Shown one piece after another: positions 10,660-51,056 of a stretch of 64,000 bases of DNA. The stretch covers positions 15,138-79,137 of the forward strand of contig JAFGHP010000083.1 in assembly GCA_016930055.1 (NCBI GenBank). Reading direction: 5' to 3'. The stretch's first letter is position 1. Each line of letters starts with the position of its first letter. The notes under the pieces are model-generated. The model was not told where the DNA came from. It searched no databases and was given only the letters and a program-made list of their open reading frames with translations. This DNA comes from Candidatus Bathyarchaeota archaeon (lineage in GTDB: Archaea > Thermoproteota > Bathyarchaeia > TCS64). The translations under genes were made by a program, and so were the position numbers.

Positions 10660-10854
10660 ATGAAAAATAGAAAGAAGACCGCTAGATGTGAGATATGCTT
10701 ACAGCCAGCAACAAAAGATTACATGTTTAAATTAGCATATTACGAGGTTAGAAAAAAAGTTAATAAAGTGTTCTGCGGAGCATATTGCCTTAAAGACTTA
10801 GTTGAAAAAGAACTTGATAAAACGCACCTAGATGAACTGTACTCACCAGAATAA
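10660..10854 (+). CDS. small zinc-ribbon protein (hypothetical)
   Basis: The 64-aa ORF has CEIC ... CGAYC Cys pairs. It lies at the left edge of the R-M island. Confidence 0.35.
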   Translation: MKNRKKTARCEICLQPATKDYMFKLAYYEVRKKVNKVFCGAYCLKDLVEKELDKTHLDELYSPE

Positions 10855-11078
10855 TTAGTTGATGAAAACAGGATTCATTGATGATTAAAATGATCTTTAT
10901 CATAATAGCTCAATTATTTTGAAGTACTTCAACGAACCATTCAAAAACAAGTACTATGATCTTCCAGTATTTCGTTTTGCTAGAAACCATGGATGTAAAA
11001 ATTGTACAAATCAAAAATGTGACCTCAAAACTATGAAAAATTGTGAGGAAATAAGGTAGATGAGTTTATTTTATAAAT

Positions 11079-11684
11079 TTAACTTCCCCTATAAGTTGCT
11101 TTTTGAACAATTGTAAAAATCTCATCATCATTATATAAAGCATCAAGAACTTCTTTAAACATATAAGCTTCATGATTACTTGTTTTTTCTTCAATCATCA
11201 TAAGCTCGATAACATGTCCTATAAACTCAACGGAATATTCACCATATTTATCTAATTTTTTAAATCTCTTAAAATCCTTGTCTTTAGTTAATTTTAATTC
11301 ACATTTTTGCTGTTCTTCTTTTGTTGTGAAAGGTTTAATATTTTCCCACATATCAGACAGATATTTAATACACGATTTAGTTAATTTGGGACTGTGTTCC
11401 TTTTTAAGCAATAGATCAATTGCCCAATGAATATGTTGCGGAGTTCTAACTCTTTTTCTCAGCTCCTGATACTTTACAATTATATCTAAATCAGGATGGT
11501 TACCATAACTTCCTTGAAAAACACCGATAATTGTTCCATTTTTTAATCTGAATTCTTTAAACGCAAATAATTTTCTATGTTTTCCATTTCTTCCTTTTAC
11601 TGAACATTCCATCAAAATATTATCATCTGTATGTTTTATTTCTAAATCAGGTTTAAAATTTTTTGTATTTTTTAAATATTTCAA
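11079..11684 (-). CDS. hypothetical protein (R-M island; divergent from the Dam-like MTase)
   Basis: The 201-aa ORF has no recognisable family. The clean ORF shares a 114-bp divergent promoter region with the Dam-family MTase gene. Confidence 0.5.
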   Translation of the reverse strand: MKYLKNTKNFKPDLEIKHTDDNILMECSVKGRNGKHRKLFAFKEFRLKNGTIIGVFQGSYGNHPDLDIIVKYQELRKRVRTPQHIHWAIDLLLKKEHSPKLTKSCIKYLSDMWENIKPFTTKEEQQKCELKLTKDKDFKRFKKLDKYGEYSVEFIGHVIELMMIEEKTSNHEAYMFKEVLDALYNDDEIFTIVQKATYRGS

Positions 11685-35930: not shown

Positions 35931-37169
35931 TCAGTTTCTCAATACCCCTGCTCCAATTAATCTCCATCTACCACCAATTCTACGACTTATTGCTACGTGA
36001 TCAGTTTCTTCTCCACAGATAGGAATAGATAATTTTGCCTCTATGTAGTCTTTCTTTACTAAAGTAATGTCCGCCATAGTCTTTGAGGTTCCTACATTTA
36101 GTAGAAGTTTTTCTCCTTTAGCAATTTTAGCTACTGCTTCCTGTTCTTTACTACCAATAACGCTACTAAAAAGTTTAATATCAAGATTTAGCTCTTCACG
36201 AACAGGTGGTAACATGCCAGGTATTCCAGCAATACTTCCAACTAGACCATCTGATTTGGTTAAAGATGGATCAAGAGTTGTCCCAACACCTACAAGACCC
36301 CCAGGCAAAGCCTCTGAAACAGAACTATCTCCTATATATAAACTGGTAATTTCTGTAGTTAATTCTCTCATTTTGACTTTATTTTTCTCTCTAGTGGGTA
36401 AACCGGGGCGAATTTCTATTTCATCGCCTACTTTGAAGCTGCCTTGATAAATTGAACCTCCAAGAACCCCTCCCATCAGATCTTCAATTAATGTTCCTGG
36501 ATTATTCACATCGAAACTTCGAATAATATGCATTCGTGCAGGTTTATTTGGGTCTCTTTTAGGGGTTAGTAAATATTCTTGAATTGCTTGTAAAAGGAGA
36601 TCGATATTTAATTTATGTTGAGCGGAAACAGGGATTATTGGAGCATTTTCCGCAATACTTCCTTTTAAAAATTTTAATATATCAGTATAATTTCTAATCG
36701 CTTCGTCACGATTAACTAAATCGATTTTATTTTGGACCACAATAATGTTTTTTAAACCAATTATATCTATAGCTGCTAAGTGTTCGCGGGTTTGTGGTTG
36801 AGGACATTTTTCGTTTGCTGCTATAACTAATATGGCTCCATCCATAACTGCAGCTCCACTTAACATAGTGGCCATTAAAATCTCGTGACCTGGCGCATCA
36901 ACAAAACTGATTGCTCTCTTAAACTCAGTATCCGAACCGCATTTTGTACACTCTGGTGTTACAGAATAACAATCAGGTTCATCACATTCTTTACATTTAT
37001 AAATAGCAAAATCAGCATAACCTAATTTAATCGTAATGCCTCTTTTTAATTCTTCACTATGTTTTGAAGCCCATTCTCCTGTAAGAGCTTGAACTAGTGT
37101 TGTTTTACCATGGTCGACATGACCTATTGTACCAATATTAATTTCTGGCTGCTTTGGTAGTTTAGGGAT
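35931..37169 (-). CDS. eif2g: translation initiation factor 2 subunit gamma (aIF2-gamma)
   Basis: The ORF track starts at an internal Met (36875). The in-frame upstream part encodes PKQPEINIGTIGHVDHGKTTLVQALTGEWASKHSEELKRGITIKLGYADFAIYKCKECDEPDCY...APGHE (P-loop and Zn knuckle). No ATG/GTG/TTG lies between the stop at 37200-37202 and the P-loop. GGGAGG (37179-37184) is followed 9 nt later by ATC (37167-37169). Confidence 0.85.
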   Translation of the reverse strand: MPKLPKQPEINIGTIGHVDHGKTTLVQALTGEWASKHSEELKRGITIKLGYADFAIYKCKECDEPDCYSVTPECTKCGSDTEFKRAISFVDAPGHEILMATMLSGAAVMDGAILVIAANEKCPQPQTREHLAAIDIIGLKNIIVVQNKIDLVNRDEAIRNYTDILKFLKGSIAENAPIIPVSAQHKLNIDLLLQAIQEYLLTPKRDPNKPARMHIIRSFDVNNPGTLIEDLMGGVLGGSIYQGSFKVGDEIEIRPGLPTREKNKVKMRELTTEITSLYIGDSSVSEALPGGLVGVGTTLDPSLTKSDGLVGSIAGIPGMLPPVREELNLDIKLFSSVIGSKEQEAVAKIAKGEKLLLNVGTSKTMADITLVKKDYIEAKLSIPICGEETDHVAISRRIGGRWRLIGAGVLRN

Positions 37170-37362
37170 ATTTCTTCGCCTCCCTGAATCTAAATGCGAT
37201 TACTATATTACTTACACTTAAATACGTTTAGCATAACTCGATGTATATTTCTTGTTTAAAAAATACTTTTTTTAATAAAAAAAAGTATTAAAAATATGAA
37301 AATAGTGATTATTTTTATAATGATAATCGATGCATCTAAACGTAGAGTGGGAAGAGCAATAA

Positions 37363-38529
37363 TTGGATAATTATTTAATAATTTGGATAAGACTACTAAA
37401 TAGTTTAATAACCATTGCTTTTTTCCCATATTTATATTTTATTTATAAAAAAACAAAAAAACATTTTTATCTACTTTGGGGAGGAGGATTTTTACTTTAT
37501 GGTATAGGCATTATAATTAGATCAATTTTACCTACAATTGGTTTAGAAGAATCTTTAAATGCACAAATCTTTTCCTTTATTTTCACTTTATCGGGATTCA
37601 TTTTTATTATAGTTGGAATCGGGGATCTTACAAATAGGATAAAATTAATGTTATGCACTTCGATGAGCATACCATTATTTTTATCTTATTTATTTTTTAC
37701 ATCTAAACCATATGAAATTGGTAGAGCAATTTCATTAATTCCCTTCATATTCATTAGTATAAGTTTACTGTTAATTAGGAAAAACTATACTTCAAGTCTA
37801 GATTTGTTAACAATAGGATGGATAATATTAACAATTGACAATATTGGATTAGCTTTAGAATTGATTTCTGAGATATTCGTAGAAGTTTTTGCGGTCTTAG
37901 GTAAGATTATAATTTTTTTAGGTATGACTTACCCACGTTTTTCACTGCTTGTGGATGATTTTAAAAGATTCTTAATATCAGGTTTACCAAATAATTATAC
38001 CGAAAATAATTTAAAACATGTTATTTTAGTGAATTCTACTAATGCAAATCGTGAAGTAGAATTAAAATGGATTAAAGAACAAGTTGAAGAAAATAAAATT
38101 CATGGTATTCGTACAATTCTTATTTCATATCATGATTTAATTTCAATTAATGATATAAAAAATATTAGAATAGATCAAAAGGATCTTTATATTGTTCGAA
38201 TGTTAACTGGAGGAAGAATTCTGCAAGAAATATTTACTAAAGATTCTATGACTATTAACGATGATCTTAACGAACTTGATATTTTATTAAATGAAATTAT
38301 TGAATTCTCCAAAGAAAAAAAAATAAAATGTTCAGTTATTCTTTATACTCTTTCTTCACTTATTCATATTCATGGGTGGAAAAGAGTATATTCTTTCATG
38401 GTTTCAAAGTTTCAATATATTAAAGATAGTGAGATTCATGTGATTGCTTTTTATTACCCTCAAACACATGAAAATATTGCAGATATAGTAAAATTTGAAA
38501 AAATTGTAGATGATATTATTGATTTGTAA
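37363..38529 (+). CDS. membrane protein with cytoplasmic C-terminal domain (possible KaiC-associated sensor/anchor)
   Basis: The 388-aa ORF has about 6 predicted TM helices in its first 190 aa, followed by a 200-aa soluble domain. It lies upstream of a GH3-like ligase and a KaiC-like ATPase. Confidence 0.45.
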   Translation: MDNYLIIWIRLLNSLITIAFFPYLYFIYKKTKKHFYLLWGGGFLLYGIGIIIRSILPTIGLEESLNAQIFSFIFTLSGFIFIIVGIGDLTNRIKLMLCTSMSIPLFLSYLFFTSKPYEIGRAISLIPFIFISISLLLIRKNYTSSLDLLTIGWIILTIDNIGLALELISEIFVEVFAVLGKIIIFLGMTYPRFSLLVDDFKRFLISGLPNNYTENNLKHVILVNSTNANREVELKWIKEQVEENKIHGIRTILISYHDLISINDIKNIRIDQKDLYIVRMLTGGRILQEIFTKDSMTINDDLNELDILLNEIIEFSKEKKIKCSVILYTLSSLIHIHGWKRVYSFMVSKFQYIKDSEIHVIAFYYPQTHENIADIVKFEKIVDDIIDL

Positions 38530-38554
38530 ACATTCGAGGTGTGAGAGATAATCG

Positions 38555-39979
38555 ATGTCAACATTAATTAAAAAAATTTTTGTTAAAACTTTAGAAAAAT
38601 ATGCTTTAAGATTTACTTCAAAAAAGAAAATTAGTGAAGAAATTACTAAAAATATTTCAGAAAAATTAAAAAAAGCTTCAAATTCAACACTAGGGAAAGA
38701 ATTAGGGATTTCTTATAATTCAAATATAGATAAATTACCATTAACAAATTATGGTTTTTATCAAAAATATTTCGAATTTCCGAATTCTAATAGTTTATTA
38801 TATCCAATAAATGATTATGTAAAAGTATCTACTAGTGGAACTATGGGAAAACCTAAAAGTTTCCTCGTTCCAAAACCTGCTTTAACAGATAATATGCAAA
38901 AAACAGGGTTTTCTAACCTTTTCCTTTATACTCATGATGGTGAAAAAGTGACATTTGAGTATGGAGATGTAGTTTATACGAATACTCCTGGAGGAAATCA
39001 CCTTGCAGCATACAATTCAGAGATTGGAGCTAAACAAAATAAGGGTCTAGTTAAATTATGTCCAGACATTAATCTTCTTTTTAAAGATAAAGTTGAGTTC
39101 TTTATTGAAAATTATAATAAAATTGATGTAGCTTACATGCCAGTAACCACATTGATTGATGATGTTTATCCAAAAATTGGGCATCCATTTAAATTGAAAG
39201 GGTTCATAACACAAGACAGTTCTGCATGTTTTCTGAAAGAAGAAATAAAGAAAATTATTGGAAGTTACCCAAAAGTAACTTATGGTTCAACTGAAACATT
39301 AGCTTCAACTATGCCTTCAATAGAAAATCCTGGTTCTTTCTTTTTTGATTGGAGGGTATTATTTATAGAGTTAATTCCCGAAAAAGACCAGATAAAAACT
39401 GATTTCCAAACTCTAAAGGAACCCAAAGAAACATTATCTTTTTTAGATGCAGAAGTAAATAAAAAATATCAAGTTGTAGCAACTCTCTATAAAACAGATT
39501 TAACAAGATATGTAATGCCAGATATAATTGAATGCACCTGTATAGGTGACGATGTTTTAGGTTTAGAAACTCCAGTCTTTAAATATTATTCTAGATCGGA
39601 TAAAATCATTAATTTACATAATTTTACTAGGATTGGAGAACCTGAAATGTTAGAAGTCTTACTAGCATCAGGGATTAAATTCGTGGATTTTGTCGTATCT
39701 AGAGAAGTTGAAGGTTCTAGAGAGTATATGATATTATATATTGAAACGGATTCTAAAATAGATGAAACAGATCTTTATAGGGCTATTGATGAAGAGCTTA
39801 CGACTTTTGATAAAGATTGGAGAGATCTAAAGAATTACTTTAATTATTATCCTTTAAAAATCAGATTTTTACCAAAGGGAAGTTTCAATAGATATTTATC
39901 TAATAAAAAAGGTATGCCTTCTATTGACCGTATTGGTATGAAAGAAGAAAATTTAAAACAATTATTAAAACAGGATTAA
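38555..39979 (+). CDS. GH3/ANL-superfamily adenylate-forming enzyme (putative)
   Basis: The 474-aa ORF has a VSTSGTMGKPKSF motif (ANL motif A3-like) and a YGSTE motif (A5-like), plus GH3-like length. Confidence 0.5.
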   Translation: MSTLIKKIFVKTLEKYALRFTSKKKISEEITKNISEKLKKASNSTLGKELGISYNSNIDKLPLTNYGFYQKYFEFPNSNSLLYPINDYVKVSTSGTMGKPKSFLVPKPALTDNMQKTGFSNLFLYTHDGEKVTFEYGDVVYTNTPGGNHLAAYNSEIGAKQNKGLVKLCPDINLLFKDKVEFFIENYNKIDVAYMPVTTLIDDVYPKIGHPFKLKGFITQDSSACFLKEEIKKIIGSYPKVTYGSTETLASTMPSIENPGSFFFDWRVLFIELIPEKDQIKTDFQTLKEPKETLSFLDAEVNKKYQVVATLYKTDLTRYVMPDIIECTCIGDDVLGLETPVFKYYSRSDKIINLHNFTRIGEPEMLEVLLASGIKFVDFVVSREVEGSREYMILYIETDSKIDETDLYRAIDEELTTFDKDWRDLKNYFNYYPLKIRFLPKGSFNRYLSNKKGMPSIDRIGMKEENLKQLLKQD

Positions 39980-40692
39980 ACTAAGACTGGTTCTTTATTA
40001 AAAACTTCGAAACCACGATAAGTAATTGAATATCTTCTAGGTTGTTCGTCATATTTTATTCCGCGCATTTTATCTACTCTTATTGTTTTTATTAAATTAT
40101 ATTCTCTTAGATCTTTATTCAATAAGATTACTCCATCAGCTAGAAATTGTTCCATATAGAAATCTCCTTCCTGTGGACTTGTTTCTGATGTTACTATAAC
40201 ATTACATCTTATCTTTCTTAATTCTTCAAACAATTCACTAATTAAGAATCGTTTTCGTCCAGAACGAGACTCATGAATCACGAGACTTGTTAAAGGGTCT
40301 ATTACTACATTTTTTGCTTTAGTTATCTTAATTGTATCTAGCAATTTTGTTATTGATAAATTAATTAGCTCATCAGATTCTTTGTCTCTATTTTTATTTG
40401 AACCAATTTCCGGTCGGGTAAATAAATCAAGTGTTATAAGTAGACCCTTCATCTCCCAACCAGTTAGATCCCATCCAAAGGAAGCGGTGTTTTTTTTCAT
40501 ACTTTCAATTGGCTCCTCAAGGCTAGCATAGACGCATATTTCTCCTCTATGAAGCGCTTTGATCAAGTATTGTATAGAAAATACTGTTTTACCTGTTCCA
40601 GGTCCACCACATAAAAGGGTGATTTTACTTTCTGGAAATCCTCCCCCAAGCATTTCATCTAATCCTAATATCCCAGTTGGAATGAAGTTCAT
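39976..40692 (-). CDS. KaiC-like RecA-superfamily ATPase (single domain)
   Basis: The 238-aa ORF has GILGLDEMLGGGFPE, a Walker A GGPGTGKT and a Walker B hydrophobic-D (NVVIDPL), the same arrangement as archaeal KaiC-like ATPases. Confidence 0.8.
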   Translation of the reverse strand: MNFIPTGILGLDEMLGGGFPESKITLLCGGPGTGKTVFSIQYLIKALHRGEICVYASLEEPIESMKKNTASFGWDLTGWEMKGLLITLDLFTRPEIGSNKNRDKESDELINLSITKLLDTIKITKAKNVVIDPLTSLVIHESRSGRKRFLISELFEELRKIRCNVIVTSETSPQEGDFYMEQFLADGVILLNKDLREYNLIKTIRVDKMRGIKYDEQPRRYSITYRGFEVFNKEPVLV

Positions 40693-44355: not shown

Positions 44356-45225
44356 TTAAGTCAATTTTTTAACTAATTCTAATAGTTTTTCTTTACGGGA
44401 AGAATTTTCGATTGTATTCAGAGAATCGTTTATTACTTTTAAAGCTTCATTATAATATTCTTTAGATTTCTTTTTATCTCCTTTTTCGAAATATAAGCCT
44501 CCAATCCTGCGTAAATTTCTAAAATGTTTTATTTTTTCATCCTCTGAATAATTATTATAATTAATTTTATTACTGTGCAAATTTTTAATATAATTTAAAT
44601 TTTTATTTAGTATATCTAAATTGTTTGATGGTAAATCATGACCTGAAATAATAATTGATGGATTAATATTCAAATATTCTTCAAGACTTGATTGCCAATC
44701 TTTTAAATTTAAAAGATTCACTTGAGGGAAAGGTAATTCTAAATTATCACCAACAAATAATACTTTATCAACCTGATCAAAGCAACTAGCACTATCACCA
44801 GTATGACCTGGAGTGTAATTAAATTCAACCTCATCATAAGTTAGAATGATTTTTTTTCTAAAAAGAAGATTTGGTGGAGTTATTTTAACGTCTCCTTTTT
44901 TTATTTTTCCATATAATTCCAATGATTGCTTACCTTGAGCTTTAATCCTTTTATACGCTGAGTCGTGTGCAATTATTAAATCGTTAACAAATTCTTGATT
45001 GCCCCAATAATGATCATAATCTGCATGGCTGTTAAAAACTATAAAGGATTTACCATAAACCTCCTCTTCAATTAATCTCTTTTTAATTTCAATAATCGCA
45101 TTTGGACCAAGAAAAGTATCTAAAAAAATTATATGCTTTTTACCATTTATCACATATACATTTGTGAGGTATGGTTCATTAAAAGTAAATAGATGCCCAC
45201 GAGTACCTACTTTTTGATATTCCAT
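44356..45225 (-). CDS. metallo-beta-lactamase fold hydrolase
   Basis: The 289-aa ORF has an HADYDH (HxHxDH) motif and downstream His/Asp ligands. Confidence 0.7.
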   Translation of the reverse strand: MEYQKVGTRGHLFTFNEPYLTNVYVINGKKHIIFLDTFLGPNAIIEIKKRLIEEEVYGKSFIVFNSHADYDHYWGNQEFVNDLIIAHDSAYKRIKAQGKQSLELYGKIKKGDVKITPPNLLFRKKIILTYDEVEFNYTPGHTGDSASCFDQVDKVLFVGDNLELPFPQVNLLNLKDWQSSLEEYLNINPSIIISGHDLPSNNLDILNKNLNYIKNLHSNKINYNNYSEDEKIKHFRNLRRIGGLYFEKGDKKKSKEYYNEALKVINDSLNTIENSSRKEKLLELVKKLT

Positions 45226-45259
45226 ATCAATAATAAAATAATGTCCAATTTAATAAAAG

Positions 45260-45333
45260 ATGGGCCGGGCCGGACTTGAACCGGCGACCTCCGCGGTGTG
45301 AACGCGGCGTTCCACCAAGCTAGACTACCGGCC
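45260..45333 (-). tRNA. tRNA-Val (anticodon CAC)
   Basis: The GC-rich 74-nt minus-strand sequence is GGGCCGGTAGTCTAGCTTGGTGGAACGCCGCGTTCACACCGCGGAGGTCGCCGGTTCAAGTCCGGCCCGGCCCA. It has a 7-bp acceptor stem, a 5-bp anticodon stem with loop UUCACAC (CAC anticodon) and a T-arm GCCGG/TTCAAGT/CCGGC. CCA is not encoded and there is no intron. Confidence 0.75.
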
Positions 45334-45431
45334 CACAACACATGTAGCTAAAGAAACAAAATAAATTCCTTTTCATAAAAATTAAATTGTAAAGTCAATT
45401 TTCATTAATTAGAACAAAAGATTGTTTAAAA

Positions 45432-46820
45432 TTATAGATTGTCCATGTTTTTAATTATTGTATCACCGAAATCTGTACAAGACACTAACTTTGCATTTTC
45501 TAATTGTCTATAAAGATCTTGAGTCACAATTCTTGAACTGAATGTTTTTGTAATTGAAGATTGTATAAGTTCTGCAACTTCATTCCAATTCATATATTGT
45601 AACATCATAACAGCGGATAAAATTATGGAACTTGGATTTGCTCGATTTTGATTAGCATGTTTTGGTGAAGTCCCATGAGTTGCCTCAAATATCGCATGAC
45701 CTGTTTCAAAATTAATGTTAGCCCCCGGAGCTATTCCCAATCCACCAACTTCCGCAGCACATGCGTCACTTAAATAATCACCATTCAAATTCAAAGTAGC
45801 GATTACATCATATTCACGTGGTTTAATGATTAATTGCTGAAACATTTGATCAGCGATTCTATCATTTACTATTAACATTTTTTCTAAATTTTTACCACCA
45901 TTTTTTTCTTCTAAAAGTTCTAAAATCTTATTTATTTCAGTTTCTTTACCTTTAAACCCTAATTCATTAATTTTTACTGAAATATCTTTTAAACTCGTGT
46001 TCGGGTATTTATTTTTAATATCAAGAATTTGATATTCCATTTCTGTGACAATATAGTTTCTAAACTCACTTTGAGCTACTTCATAACCCCACTTTAGAAA
46101 TCCGCCTTCAGTATACTTCATTATATTTCCTTTATGTACTAGAGTTACAGATTTACGATTATTTTTTAAAGCATAATTTATGGCAGCTCGTACAAGTCGC
46201 TTAGAAGAGGATTCAGATACTTGTTTAAGACCTAATGCAGCATCTTGAGGAATAATTAGACCAAAATTTTTCAAAAAACCACGAATAGTTTTAGCTTCAT
46301 CCGAATTATGTGCCCACTCTATACCACAATATACATCTTCTGTATTTTCACGAAAAATAATCATATCAATTTTATAAGGATCCTTTATTGGTGTAGGGAC
46401 ACCTTCATACCATTTAATAGGTCTTATACACGCATAAAGATCTAATTTCTGTCTTAATGCTACGTTTAAACTTTTAAAACCATCTCCAACAGGAGTTGAT
46501 AGTGGTCCTTTAATACCAATCTTATATTTATTGAATGCTTCAAGTGTTTCTTTAGGTAAAAGAATTTTTTGATAAGAATCATCTGAAATGTTTGATAAAT
46601 AACCTTGATCTAATCCTGAAGTTTCAATTGCATCTTCACCCGCATATACTCTTAACCAATTTATTTTTCGTTTTTTTGCATAAATTTTGTCAACTGCAGC
46701 ATCTACAACCTTAATCATTACAGGCGTAATATCTTTACCTATGCCATCACCCATGATAAAAGGAACCACAGGATTATTACCAGTAACTTCTAAATCATTT
46801 TTAAAATTATGCATTGACAT
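45432..46820 (-). CDS. icd: NADP-dependent isocitrate dehydrogenase
   Basis: The 462-aa ORF has an N-terminus VPFIMGDGIGKDITPVMIKVVDAAVDKIYAKKRKINWLRVYAGED collinear with E. coli Icd (IPYIEGDGIGVDVTPAML KVVDAAVEKAY...ISWMEIYTGEK). Confidence 0.85.
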   Translation of the reverse strand: MSMHNFKNDLEVTGNNPVVPFIMGDGIGKDITPVMIKVVDAAVDKIYAKKRKINWLRVYAGEDAIETSGLDQGYLSNISDDSYQKILLPKETLEAFNKYKIGIKGPLSTPVGDGFKSLNVALRQKLDLYACIRPIKWYEGVPTPIKDPYKIDMIIFRENTEDVYCGIEWAHNSDEAKTIRGFLKNFGLIIPQDAALGLKQVSESSSKRLVRAAINYALKNNRKSVTLVHKGNIMKYTEGGFLKWGYEVAQSEFRNYIVTEMEYQILDIKNKYPNTSLKDISVKINELGFKGKETEINKILELLEEKNGGKNLEKMLIVNDRIADQMFQQLIIKPREYDVIATLNLNGDYLSDACAAEVGGLGIAPGANINFETGHAIFEATHGTSPKHANQNRANPSSIILSAVMMLQYMNWNEVAELIQSSITKTFSSRIVTQDLYRQLENAKLVSCTDFGDTIIKNMDNL

Positions 46821-48736
46821 TATTTACCTCTTAACTTATTTTTAATGAACTCCATTTTTCCACCTGCTTTAATGATTGATATTTCATGCTCACTTAAATT
46901 ATGTTTAACATAATATTTTTCACCAGAAGCTTCAACTAGAACAAGTTCATCAAAATTATCTAGGTTTAGTTCGAGTTCATTACCTTCTTTCAATTTATCA
47001 TAATCATCTTTATCTCTAAAAATAAGAGGTAATATGCCAAAATTAATTAAATTAGCAATATGAATCCTAGCAAAACTTTTAGCAATTATTACGTTTATCC
47101 CAAGATAACGAAGAACTATTGCTGCATGTTCTCTACTACTACCTTGACCATAATTTTCTCCTGCAACAATAAATCCCCCATTTTTTTGAATAGCTTCATT
47201 ATAAAAGGTACTTCGAATATTACTAAAAGTAAATTTTGTTATTTCAGGGATGTTACTTCTTAAAGGTAATATGTGAGCAGTTGCAGGGAGAATATCATCA
47301 GTAGTGATGTTATCTCCTAATTTTAATAAAATTTTACCATAAAATTTGTTATTCAGTTTTCTAAATATTGGTAAAGGTTTAATATTTTGTCCTCTAAAAA
47401 TCTGAATATCTGATCTATTATCTAAAGGGGTAACAATCATATTATCATTGACCATGAATTTTTTAGGCATTTTTAGTTTGATATCAATATTTAAAGACCT
47501 AGGATCGGTTATGTAACCCGTTAACGCCGATGCAGCAGCAGTTTCAGGGCTAACTAAATATACATTAGCATCGTTAGTTCCACTACGACCTTTAAAATTT
47601 CTATTAAAAGTTCTAAGGCTAGTTGATCCAGAAAAAGGAGCTTGCCCCATTCCTATACAGGGACCACAAGCACATTCTAATAACCTTGCTCCTGAATTAA
47701 TTATATCATTTAATTCTCCACTTTCAATAATATGTTGAAGGACCTGCCGGGATCCAGGTGATATAACTAAACTTAAGTTTTCGTTTATTTTTTTATTCTT
47801 TAAAATTTGAGATACAATTTTGATATCTCTTAAGCTTGAGTTAGTACAACTTCCAATACAAACTTGATTAACTGGTATATTTTTTAATTCATTTACTTTT
47901 TTAACATTTCCGGGGCTATGTGGTAAGGATATTAGAGGTTCAAGTTCGTTGAGATTGATTTCAATAATTTCATTATATTGAGTATTGGAGTCAGCTGTAA
48001 GTTTTATCCAATCATTAACACGGTTCTGTGAATACAGAAATCTTTTCGTTATTATATCAGAAGGGAAAATACTCGTTGTTGCTCCAGTTTCAACACACAT
48101 ATTAGTTATAGTACTACGTTCAGGAACACTAAGATTTTTAACACCAGGACCAAAAAATTCTAAAATTTTACCAACACCTCCCTTAACACCTAAAATTCTT
48201 AATAGCTCTAAAGCGATGTCTTTTGCTGAAACCATTGGTGTTAGATTTCCGATTAATTTTATTCCAATAAGTTCTGGCATTTTTATTGAAAACTTTTCTC
48301 CAGCCATTACTGCAGCTACATCTAGACCTCCTGCACCGAAAGCTAACATACCTATCCCTCCAGCTGTAGGAGTATGACTATCGCTTCCAACCAATATTTT
48401 TCCAGGTTTAGCAAAGCGTTCTAAAAAAACTTGATGACATATACCGTTTCCAGCTTTCGAAAAATATAAACCATGTTTAGATGAAAAAGATTGTAAATAT
48501 TGATGGTCCTCCATATTCTTATAATCTTCTTGAAACATGTTATGATCAATAAAACAAACACTTAACTCTACTTGAGTATTAGAAATCTCAAAAGATTCAA
48601 ATTGAAGCGCAGACATTGTTCCTGTCGAATCTTGAAGAAGCGTATGTGTAACTTCAAATTCAACTTCATCATTTTTTACGAAGTTATCTCTTGGTAATTG
48701 TTTTTTTATTATCTTTTCCACTATACTTTTACTCAT
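46820..48736 (-). CDS. aconitase-family hydratase, fused catalytic and swivel domains (~640 aa)
   Basis: The 638-aa ORF has the GSDSHT, CTNSS and SREHAA Fe-S/active-site motifs of aconitase/LeuCD. Its stop overlaps the icd start. Confidence 0.8.
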   Translation of the reverse strand: MSKSIVEKIIKKQLPRDNFVKNDEVEFEVTHTLLQDSTGTMSALQFESFEISNTQVELSVCFIDHNMFQEDYKNMEDHQYLQSFSSKHGLYFSKAGNGICHQVFLERFAKPGKILVGSDSHTPTAGGIGMLAFGAGGLDVAAVMAGEKFSIKMPELIGIKLIGNLTPMVSAKDIALELLRILGVKGGVGKILEFFGPGVKNLSVPERSTITNMCVETGATTSIFPSDIITKRFLYSQNRVNDWIKLTADSNTQYNEIIEINLNELEPLISLPHSPGNVKKVNELKNIPVNQVCIGSCTNSSLRDIKIVSQILKNKKINENLSLVISPGSRQVLQHIIESGELNDIINSGARLLECACGPCIGMGQAPFSGSTSLRTFNRNFKGRSGTNDANVYLVSPETAAASALTGYITDPRSLNIDIKLKMPKKFMVNDNMIVTPLDNRSDIQIFRGQNIKPLPIFRKLNNKFYGKILLKLGDNITTDDILPATAHILPLRSNIPEITKFTFSNIRSTFYNEAIQKNGGFIVAGENYGQGSSREHAAIVLRYLGINVIIAKSFARIHIANLINFGILPLIFRDKDDYDKLKEGNELELNLDNFDELVLVEASGEKYYVKHNLSEHEISIIKAGGKMEFIKNKLRGK

Positions 48737-50115
48737 TTTTTAACTTCCTTAATATATTGTTGTGTAGTATCAAACTCATCTTTTTTATTTACATTATAAT
48801 GTTCCCATAATTCTGGTAAATGATAGTGAACTAATTTAAGGATCTCTGAATCACTTATCGTAGTAACTCGTCCTTCATCATACTGGAAGGAAATTATTTC
48901 TACGATTTTTTGAATTCCATGATTATCCTTTGTTATCCATTCTGATCTTGGTATTTCAAGAAGTTCATTTATTTTCCAAGCAACACCACTAGATCCACTA
49001 TATTGTCCTATGGCAGATTTATAAGGTCTATTTAAAATTAATTCTAAATCATAGGAAGAATAAATTTCAGGATGCTTAATCATCCCATCCACGTGAATTC
49101 CAGCCCATGTAACATTAAAATTTTTACCAATTAAAGGATAAAAATCTGGGATTTTGTAACCAATCTCTTTATAATAATTAGCTATTTCATTAATAATTCT
49201 TGTATTAATCGATAAAGTTGGTTTTAATTGTAAAATTTGGAATATCATGCCTTCAATAGGAGTATTTCCTGCTCGTTCACCAATACTTAAAAGAGTCCCA
49301 TTCACCGCAGAACAGCCATATAACCAAGCAGATGCTGAGTTAACAACACTTAGATGGTAATCGTTATGTCCATGAAATTCAAGCCATTCGCTAGGTACAT
49401 TAGCTTCCTTATTTAAAAGATGCATAATTTTAGGAATACTTCTGGGAGATTTAACATTCGGGTAAGGTAAACCAACACCAAGAGTATCACATACTCTAAT
49501 TTTTACAGGTAATCCATACTCCTCAGATAATTTCATTAAACATTTAGCAAAGGGTAAAATCACTTTATCGATGTCAGATCTCGTTGCGTCTTCTAAATGA
49601 CAACGAGGAATAATCTCTTGGTTTAAACAACATTCAGCAATATTTAAATGATTATTAATCGCTTTCTCACGAGTCCAACCAAATTTAAAATATATATGAT
49701 AATCACTTAGAGAAGATAAAATACCTGTTTCAGTAATACCAGTATTTTTGACTAGTTCTAAATCTTTTACATTCGCTCTAATCCAACCAGTAATTTTAGG
49801 ATATTCGTAACCCAGTTCTTGACAATTTTTAACTGCTTCACGATCTTTTTTATTATATAAAAAAAATTCTGTTGCCCTAATTATGCCTTGAGGACCTCCA
49901 AGTTTATGCATGTATTTATAAAGTTTCTCAATCTGTTCAACTGTATAAGGCTCTCTTGCTTGTTGACCGTCTCTAAATGTCGTATCAGTTATCCAAATAT
50001 CTTCAGGAATGTTAATTGGTAAATATTCTTCATCAAAAGCTATTTTGGGTAAGTGAGGAAAAGGGAATACTTCTCTGAATAAATTTGGATTATTGGAAGA
50101 TTCATTTAATATCAT
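48733..50115 (-). CDS. LeuA/NifV-family DRE-TIM metallolyase (Re-citrate synthase-like or homocitrate synthase-like)
   Basis: The 460-aa ORF has TDTTFRDGQQ and HGHNDYHLSV motifs of the isopropylmalate/homocitrate synthase family. It has no LeuA regulatory C-terminal domain and is the first gene of an operon with aconitase and icd. Confidence 0.7.
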   Translation of the reverse strand: MILNESSNNPNLFREVFPFPHLPKIAFDEEYLPINIPEDIWITDTTFRDGQQAREPYTVEQIEKLYKYMHKLGGPQGIIRATEFFLYNKKDREAVKNCQELGYEYPKITGWIRANVKDLELVKNTGITETGILSSLSDYHIYFKFGWTREKAINNHLNIAECCLNQEIIPRCHLEDATRSDIDKVILPFAKCLMKLSEEYGLPVKIRVCDTLGVGLPYPNVKSPRSIPKIMHLLNKEANVPSEWLEFHGHNDYHLSVVNSASAWLYGCSAVNGTLLSIGERAGNTPIEGMIFQILQLKPTLSINTRIINEIANYYKEIGYKIPDFYPLIGKNFNVTWAGIHVDGMIKHPEIYSSYDLELILNRPYKSAIGQYSGSSGVAWKINELLEIPRSEWITKDNHGIQKIVEIISFQYDEGRVTTISDSEILKLVHYHLPELWEHYNVNKKDEFDTTQQYIKEVKK

Positions 50116-50207
50116 ATTCTAATCACTTTTCTCAAACGCATATTTGTTACAAAGAATTTTTATATAATAAAAACATATTTCCTGGAAAACTGAACATACG
50201 GTTATAA

Positions 50208-50699
50208 ATGAGGAGAATGTATGAACACATGAAAAATAATGAGAATGTTGTTAATTTTCTTAATGATGAGATAAATCGGAAAATTTTACAAGAATATTTA
50301 AACGATTCCCGGCAATCCTATAGAGAAATTTCAAGGAAATTAGGCGTAGCACCAGGAACAATAATTACTCGTATGAAACACCTTGAAGAAAATGGTTTAA
50401 TAAAAAAGTTTACAGTACAAATTAATCTTGAAAAAATGGGCTACATTATTACTGCAATAACCCACATGCAAATCCGAGGTTCATCAATTTTAGAAAAAGA
50501 CAATATATTATTTAAGTTAAAAGAAGCTAATGCAATTTACAAAGTTACAGGTGGAACAGACATCATCATTATTGCTAAGTTAAAAACAACAATGGAACTT
50601 GATAAATATCTCACAAAATTAAATAACAATAAAGCTATTAGAAGGACTCATACATACGTCGTATTAGATACTATAAAAGAAGATTTTAACCATATATGA
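50208..50699 (+). CDS. Lrp/AsnC-family transcriptional regulator
   Basis: The 163-aa ORF has an N-terminal HTH (SYREISRKLGVAPGTIITRMKHLEENG) and a C-terminal RAM domain. It is divergent from the citrate-synthase-like operon. Confidence 0.85.
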   Translation: MRRMYEHMKNNENVVNFLNDEINRKILQEYLNDSRQSYREISRKLGVAPGTIITRMKHLEENGLIKKFTVQINLEKMGYIITAITHMQIRGSSILEKDNILFKLKEANAIYKVTGGTDIIIIAKLKTTMELDKYLTKLNNNKAIRRTHTYVVLDTIKEDFNHI

Positions 50700-50701
50700 A
50701 T

Positions 50702-50866
50702 TCAACTATTTAATTTCTTAAATTGGTCTTTGGTTGCACCACAAATGGGACAAACCCATTCTTGAGGCAACTTTTCAAAAGGAGTATTTACAGGAACACC
50801 GTTTGAAGGATCACCCTCAGTAGGATCATAAATATATCCACATACAGTGCATTCGTATTTGTTCAT
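50702..50866 (-). CDS. rubredoxin
   Basis: [52 protein letters not shown] carries both CxxCG knuckles. The ORF-track N-terminal 20 aa (to 50926) are probably not translated. Confidence 0.8.
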
Positions 50867-51056
50867 ATCTAGAAACATTGTAGCAGAATAATTTAAAGGA
50901 ATCCAAAATACATAGTTATACATCAAAATACAAAGATATATACATCAGAAAACCAGTAATAAAATAAAGGTTTTAGCTAATTTCATTTAAAAATTATCAA
51001 TTATTTCATTAATTATCGAAAATTTTAAAATAAACTATATCGACAATAAAAGCATT

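Follow-up and report, generated by a model that had tools for sequence, protein, structure and literature searches.

The locus described here raises the question of which pathway is served by three overlapping genes that encode a LeuA/NifV-like synthase, an aconitase-family hydratase and an isocitrate dehydrogenase (IDH) next to a divergent Lrp/AsnC-family regulator. The genes lie in a 64,000-nt stretch of the genome of a marine Candidatus Bathyarchaeota archaeon (GCA_016930055.1, contig JAFGHP010000083.1, positions 15,138-79,137; this whole stretch is hereafter called the window). We consider it highly probable that they form an operon for an anabolic, oxidative tricarboxylic acid (TCA) cycle branch in an anaerobic archaeon, which starts with a Re-citrate synthase (Re-CS) and proceeds through aconitase and IDH to 2-oxoglutarate. 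This reading, which a first-pass annotation of the same DNA had put forward as a candidate in preference to a homocitrate pathway, is favored because of the sequence clade of the synthase, its 30 of 30 signature residues, the family cutoffs, the active-site residues, the conserved genomic context and the precedent of Clostridium acetobutylicum.

Under the proposed mechanism, the product of gene 1, a citrate synthase of the C. kluyveri type with Re-face specificity, would condense acetyl-CoA with oxaloacetate to form citrate; the 638-aa [4Fe-4S] aconitase encoded by gene 2 would isomerise citrate to isocitrate; and the Icd-type dehydrogenase encoded by gene 3 would oxidatively decarboxylate isocitrate to 2-oxoglutarate, the precursor of glutamate, probably with reduction of NADP+. 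The divergent regulator would control the operon from the shared AT-rich region, plausibly in response to an amino acid. Such a pathway is already known, and it is the host lineage that is new, rather than the kind of enzyme or pathway. The features of the locus, in window coordinates, are:

48733..50115 (-): operon gene 1, candidate Re-citrate synthase (C. kluyveri type, EC 2.3.3.3), 460 aa, HMGL-like domain
46820..48736 (-): operon gene 2, single-chain aconitate hydratase (PRK07229/TIGR01342 type), 638 aa
45432..46820 (-): operon gene 3, Icd-type isocitrate dehydrogenase, probably NADP-dependent, 462 aa
50116..50207 (no strand): predicted divergent intergenic control region, 92 nt (113 nt if the Lrp gene starts at 50229), with a central AT-rich TATA-like box
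50208..50699 (+): Lrp/AsnC-family (FFRP) transcription regulator, 163 aa, divergent from the operon

Direct reading of the sequence and the list of open reading frames (ORFs) bear out the 4-nt and 1-nt overlaps between the three minus-strand genes that had been reported at first pass: the synthase stop and the aconitase start have the tetranucleotide ATGA in common, and the aconitase stop overlaps the IDH start by one nucleotide in TAATG. Given these overlaps, the three genes are very likely co-transcribed as a single transcript and translationally coupled. Synthase and aconitase proteins identical to those of the window are present in NCBI, from a Candidatus Bathyarchaeota metagenome-assembled genome, so the ORFs of the operon are real, conserved genes rather than chance reading frames. 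Pfam matches and ORF lengths likewise agree with the initial description of a synthase without the LeuA regulatory domain, a fused aconitase of about 640 aa and an Icd-type IDH. A Si-citrate synthase, reported absent from the window at first pass, was not found there either in the Pfam and precomputed annotations of every ORF of at least 350 aa or in a six-frame tblastn search with Escherichia coli GltA, which returned nothing better than E=1.3.

Sequence assignment of the three enzymes

The Re-citrate synthases of the type considered here are DRE-TIM metallolyases related to LeuA and NifV, and Re-citrate synthase is reportedly oxygen-sensitive and dependent on Mn2+ or Co2+. In the window synthase, HMGL-like (PF00682) is the sole Pfam domain, LeuA_dimer (PF08502) is absent, and the metal- and substrate-binding core is retained (R48, D49, H248 and H250, in the Arg-Asp and HxH motifs of the superfamily). 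Among solved structures, its nearest counterparts are citramalate, homocitrate and isopropylmalate synthases, with matches of only 40-71 bits, so that no closely related structure exists for this enzyme type. BLASTP comparison with reference Re-CS sequences (Table S1 of PMC12016533, machine-read from the PDF with small errors, which makes the identities approximate and in all likelihood too low) gave 50% identity over 436 aa to Syntrophus aciditrophicus SYN_02536 and, over ~435 aa in each case, 48% to the C. thermocellum homolog and 45% to both C. kluyveri CKL_0973 and C. acetobutylicum CAC0970. The corresponding identities to NifV, LeuA and CimA are 24-27% (27% for NifV of Heliomicrobium modesticaldum, 25% for LeuA and 24% for CimA).

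The alignment has 30 positions at which the C. kluyveri-type clade is at least 97% invariant, with residues absent from all 8 outgroup sequences, and the window protein agrees with the clade at every one of them. Examples are RDGQQ in place of the RDGEQ of the family, the Arg of PRCHLED, WLYG, and TxAGIH in place of HxSGIH; the further clade motifs FFLY, SDYH and PRCH[LF]ED are also present. In a neighbor-joining (NJ) tree of 50 sequences (Kimura-corrected p-distances, 100 bootstraps), the C. kluyveri-type Re-CS clade, with the window synthase inside it, was recovered in 100 of 100 bootstraps. Phylogenetic placement had been proposed at first pass as a check on the assignment, and its outcome is that the synthase groups with characterised Re-CS, apart from homocitrate synthases (HCS), CimA and isopropylmalate synthases (IPMS). 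Within the clade, the Bathyarchaeia synthases are monophyletic (97/100) and fall outside a group made up of 26 bacterial sequences (93/100); the synthases of Nitrososphaerales, Asgard archaea and Ignicoccus are likewise outside this monophyletic bacterial group. CKL_0973 and SYN_02536 share with the window synthase the clade, the signature residues and the lack of the LeuA regulatory domain, but the Bathyarchaeia proteins form a separate subclade outside the bacterial group, and SYN_02536 (Table S1 of PMC12016533) is ~170 residues longer at its C terminus, an extension that is absent from the window synthase.

In many of the bacterial proteins of the clade (P0030, P0032, P0037, P0046, P0048, P0114 and others), we observed a C-terminal extension of ~130 aa that contains PF02743/PF22673. 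These proteins come from Saganbacteria, Margulisiibacteriota, Latescibacterota and Elusimicrobiota, and the archaeal proteins are without the extension. Such an extension suggests that in those bacteria the enzyme is controlled directly by a ligand.

Two unrelated-looking lineages of Re-CS have been described, with frequent misannotation (PMC12016533). The second, represented by Dehalococcoides mccartyi CAI83711, C. difficile AksA and H. modesticaldum HM1_2993, has likewise carried wrong labels, as homocitrate or isopropylmalate synthase (PMC12016533). It is part of the same superfamily and catalyses the same reaction that we predict for the window enzyme. However, proteins of this second lineage (Dehalococcoides, C. 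difficile, Heliomicrobium, Thermoanaerobacter) are 26-28% identical to the window synthase and lie nearer NifV and LeuA in the tree; this low identity and the separate tree lineage rule out an enzyme of the Dehalococcoides/Heliomicrobium type.

The second gene encodes a single chain with both the Aconitase and the Aconitase_C domains, which passes the cutoffs of NF005558 (884.6 vs 612) and TIGR01342 (789.1 vs 719.15). In the alignment with mitochondrial aconitase, conservation extends to the three cysteines that bind the [4Fe-4S] cluster and to the catalytic residues Asp-His, Ser and Arg, and the motifs DSHTP, SCTNSS, CGPCIG, NRNFKGR and GSSREH are aligned. The closest relatives are 58-62% identical, 630-646 aa long and annotated as aconitase, and come from Thermoplasmata, several Asgard lineages and Clostridia. 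Judging from these relatives, the 640-aa aconitase is of a type widespread among the named archaeal and clostridial lineages and not specifically bacterial.

The third protein, an Iso_dh-domain enzyme, exceeds the cutoff of the NADP-IDH model NF005425 (539.5 vs 490) and misses that of TIGR00183 by 2 bits (565.0 vs 567.3). In PDB it is best matched by the IDHs of Bacillus subtilis and E. coli (E about 1e-131 to 1e-134), and it retains each of the ten E. coli Icd residues that serve in substrate binding, metal binding or catalysis (S113, N115, R119, R129, R153, Y160, K230, D283, D307 and D311). The extra length of the protein is due to two insertions relative to E. coli Icd, of 14 and about 42 aa, which are also found in its Bathyarchaeia relatives. 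The pocket for the 2'-phosphate of the cofactor is mixed, with K344 and R395 kept and three changes (R292K, Y345H, Y391Q), so that a preference for NADP+ appears likely but not certain.

The closest functional precedent is the citA-citB-citC gene set of C. acetobutylicum (CAC0970-CAC0972), a putative tricistronic operon whose citB transposon mutant is a glutamate auxotroph (PMC4383383) and whose purified products have been demonstrated to have Re-CS, aconitase and IDH activity, respectively (PMC4669385, PMC4383383). The order of Re-citrate synthase, aconitase and isocitrate dehydrogenase genes is the same in the window, but the Clostridium IDH is NADH-dependent, whereas the window IDH is of the 462-aa Icd type with a mostly NADP-type pocket, and the window operon belongs to an archaeal host and is accompanied by a conserved divergent Lrp/AsnC gene. 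The Clostridium IDH is also a shorter enzyme, of roughly 330 aa; a short IDH, at 29% identity, is encoded at the clostridial locus L032.

The first-pass annotation had compared the genes with clusters of this composition in C. acetobutylicum and C. kluyveri. The comparison holds for C. acetobutylicum and in part for C. thermocellum, in which the Re-CS homolog adjoins an aconitase gene (PMC6115520); the C. kluyveri cluster could not be confirmed. Labelling in C. thermocellum shows both Re- and Si-type activities (PMC6115520), and the same paper mentions a similar result for C. kluyveri, so that the presence of gltA would not contradict a Re-CS assignment. For archaea, the use of Re-CS by Ignicoccus is credited to Jahn et al. 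2007 as cited in PMC12016533. Identity between the window synthase and the homolog from I. islandicus is 53%; this homolog groups with the other archaeal sequences, but its gene stands alone, with no adjacent aconitase, IDH or Lrp genes. We found no assignment of the Ignicoccus activity to a gene. Our literature searches on Bathyarchaeota or Bathyarchaeia together with Re-citrate or citrate synthase retrieved no paper describing the operon in that lineage. The present assignment would extend a proven clostridial operon design of Re-CS, aconitase and IDH to an abundant, uncultured archaeal lineage, in which it comes with a lineage-specific regulator.

Conservation of the module and alternative readings

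Look-ups by exact protein of homologs at 60-75% identity revealed the same module in five independent Bathyarchaeia loci, with a divergent Lrp/AsnC gene and genes for the synthase, an aconitase of 633-638 aa and an IDH of 456-477 aa. Of these loci, L086 shows synteny with the window; in L082/L083 (TARA Oceans, GCA_030743655.1), L084 and L087, the flanks are entirely different. The Lrp gene occupies the same divergent position in all five loci, and identities among its orthologs are 38-65%. In L082/L083, a canonical 516-aa LeuA with LeuA_dimer adjoins the module, and this lineage thus has a separate leucine enzyme.

The wider profile was drawn from 80 mostly bacterial genomes with a 48-55% identical homolog among the matches listed, with no Bathyarchaeia among them. 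An aconitase or IDH homolog lies near the synthase homolog in ~8 of these 80 listed loci (including L022, L023, L031, L032, L035, L044 and L077), which rules out universal synteny of the synthase with aconitase and IDH across the family. A divergent Lrp/AsnC gene was not found by tblastn in the bacterial loci sampled. The arrangement also differs from the four-gene module in 'Candidatus Asgardarchaeum californiense' (GCA_003662835.1, L088 41-2637), where a short Iso_dh gene (347 aa) precedes the Re-CS homolog and histidine biosynthesis genes follow it.

Several observations weigh against the assignment of the operon to a Re-CS branch. The homolog is not beside an aconitase or IDH gene in 72 of the 80 mostly bacterial genomes listed; the phylogeny is a simple NJ one whose outgroup is distant; the characterised, purified enzymes all belong to the bacterial subclade and none to the archaeal one; and the cofactor pocket of the IDH, with its three changes, is not fully canonical.

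The alternative that fares best accepts the three enzymes as proposed and assigns the operon another role than supply of a glutamate precursor, for example a complete oxidative TCA cycle for acetate or other organic carbon, or production of citrate or isocitrate for another purpose, with Lrp perhaps a mere neighbor. The window contains nothing that would settle what becomes of 2-oxoglutarate downstream, and the relatives come in part from ocean water-column metagenomes (TARA). However, studies of organisms with this type of enzyme have found an anabolic branch that stops at 2-oxoglutarate or glutamate (PMC4383383, PMC6115520, PMC12016533), and the divergent position of the Lrp gene is kept in five loci with differing other neighbors, which argues for a functional linkage with the operon. 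We therefore regard such a different role as improbable.

We give much less credence to the possibility that the three genes encode homocitrate synthase, homoaconitase and homoisocitrate dehydrogenase, which would elongate 2-oxoacids for lysine (the alpha-aminoadipate, or AAA, pathway) or coenzyme B. The synthase is in the same superfamily as NifV, LysS and AksA, enzymes of the aconitase and Iso_dh families serve the AAA and coenzyme B pathways too, and the Lrp-family regulator LysM is among the NCBIfam matches of the regulator. All the relevant cutoffs are nevertheless missed: by the synthase with NifV (TIGR02660, 127.4 vs 462.9) and LysS (TIGR02146, 107 vs 413.55), by the aconitase with the homoaconitase models HacA_Meth (295.7 vs 550) and HacB (93.5 vs 230), by the IDH with the homoisocitrate dehydrogenase models AksF NF040619 (187.3 vs 500), NF040626 (194.7 vs 540) and NF040855 (102.3 vs 680), and by the regulator with LysM (65 bits vs 180). 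The aconitase and the IDH, on the other hand, each pass an equivalog cutoff of their own family; the aconitase is a single fused chain, whereas HacA/HacB and LeuC/LeuD are two separate subunits; the Icd residues S113 and N115, which hold the gamma-carboxylate of isocitrate, are conserved; and the synthase is 27% identical to NifV as against 45-50% to Re-CS.

Least credible of all is the public annotation, under which the synthase would be a 2-isopropylmalate (or citramalate) synthase for branched-chain amino acids beside a leucine-responsive regulator: NCBI gives the identical protein the name "2-isopropylmalate synthase", its best NCBIfam match is the generic archaeal LEU1 subfamily TIGR02090 and an Lrp-family gene adjoins, but that match reaches 136.4 bits against a cutoff of 484.75, LeuA_dimer is absent, the CimA models score 70 (cutoff 950) and 54.6 (cutoff 450), identity to both LeuA and CimA is low, the co-translated partners are an aconitase (286.5 vs 610.65 with the isopropylmalate isomerase model LEU2) and an IDH rather than LeuCD and LeuB, and a related Bathyarchaeon has its own canonical LeuA beside the module. 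Across the HCS, IPMS and CimA models, the synthase scores at most 136 bits where the cutoffs are at least 413, which places it outside the LeuA, NifV, LysS and CimA families. The sub-cutoff scores, the low identities and the tree together lead us to reject the homocitrate, LeuA and CimA readings.

The NCBI label of the synthase is thus very probably wrong; that of the identical aconitase protein is "aconitate hydratase". The Re-CS assignment corrects a misannotation that is propagating among these proteins, and metabolic reconstructions of Bathyarchaeia that use the current labels would arrive at the false conclusion that citrate synthase is missing and the route to glutamate broken. Elsewhere in the Re-CS clade, several of the proteins P0037, P0046, P0051, P0059, P0079 and P0096 are labelled 'histone-lysine N-methyltransferase' in NCBI/UniRef, and others are labelled '2-isopropylmalate synthase' or 'triose-phosphate isomerase'; these odd labels look like propagated misannotations.

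With respect to the origin of the module, the short aconitase and the bacterial-like organisation had been taken at first pass as a possible sign of acquisition from anaerobic bacteria. This suggestion is not supported, because the Bathyarchaeia synthases are not nested among the bacterial sequences and the 640-aa aconitase type is common in archaea. Ancient archaeal ancestry of the synthase is a possibility only, given the simple tree and its distant outgroup. Tentatively, and with more doubt than confidence, one might go further and view Re-CS as an ancient citrate synthase of anaerobes that was inherited vertically in archaea or exchanged once between the domains, and that in Bathyarchaeia became the sole entry to the TCA branch, as part of a self-regulated four-gene module (Lrp and the three enzymes) that moves between genomic contexts.

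The regulator, the intergenic region and neighboring genes

The regulator has the domain composition of the Lrp/AsnC family, with N-terminal HTH_AsnC-type and HTH_24 domains (PF13404/PF13412) and the C-terminal ligand domain AsnC_trans_reg (RAM, PF01037). It reaches none of the NCBIfam equivalog cutoffs (Lrp, LysM, LrpA), the best score being that of a halobacterial Lrp (97 vs 190). The gene caller places its start at 50229, which gives a protein of 156 aa. Conservation of the divergent gene points to local control from a shared promoter region, and the regulator probably acts on the operon from there. A conserved, dedicated regulator of this kind could be a sensor of nitrogen or amino-acid status.

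The spacer between the divergent genes, a predicted promoter region, contains in its middle the AT-rich TATA-like box TTTTTATATAATAAAAA (about 50157-50173, by direct reading). The block around the box is conserved in L086, the closest relative, and AT-rich boxes are found in farther relatives too. No shared operator motif is evident by eye across the divergent intergenic regions of the module loci, among which only that of L086 aligns. Two AAATATG(N)TTT-like copies flank the box (50135-50185); they are kept in L086, are not recognisable in the farther loci and represent candidate binding sites of the regulator.

On the other side of the regulator, a small rubredoxin gene (50702-50866, minus strand, with a possible start at 50923) is convergent with the Lrp gene, from whose 3' end it is separated by 2 nt. 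L086 has this arrangement too (54 aa), and the more distant Bathyarchaeia loci do not; a rubredoxin neighbor fits an anaerobic or oxygen-stressed lifestyle.

Downstream of the operon, a tRNA-Val(CAC) gene (45259-45335, minus strand) lies on the same strand ~95 nt after the IDH stop and appears by eye far GC-richer than the surrounding DNA of 30% GC. It sits between the operon and a gene for a metallo-beta-lactamase (MBL)-fold protein with a C-terminal TPR (44356-45225, minus strand), which comes after the IDH gene in the window, as does an MBL-fold gene in L086 (8328-9197). In L087, the IDH gene is followed by a gene for a different, 210-aa MBL-fold protein (10723-11355). The MBL-fold gene may be loosely associated with the module, or its position may be a coincidence.

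The window as a whole has a GC content of ~32%, and its other genes are archaeal housekeeping genes, such as those for aminoacyl-tRNA synthetases, aIF5B, eIF2 alpha and gamma, primase, GINS, ribosomal proteins and H+-pyrophosphatase. Two adjacent ORFs of 388 and 474 aa (37363-39979, plus strand), with no Pfam match at E<=1e-5, lie in its most AT-rich part (GC 0.27 at 38001-40000). The eIF2-gamma ORF (35931-37200, minus strand), as listed, begins with the ATG at 36875 and has 314 aa; its frame is open for ~85 codons further upstream, where it codes for the G1 motif GHVDHGKT and where the motif is preceded by no ATG, GTG or TTG, which indicates either a non-canonical start codon or a sequence error.

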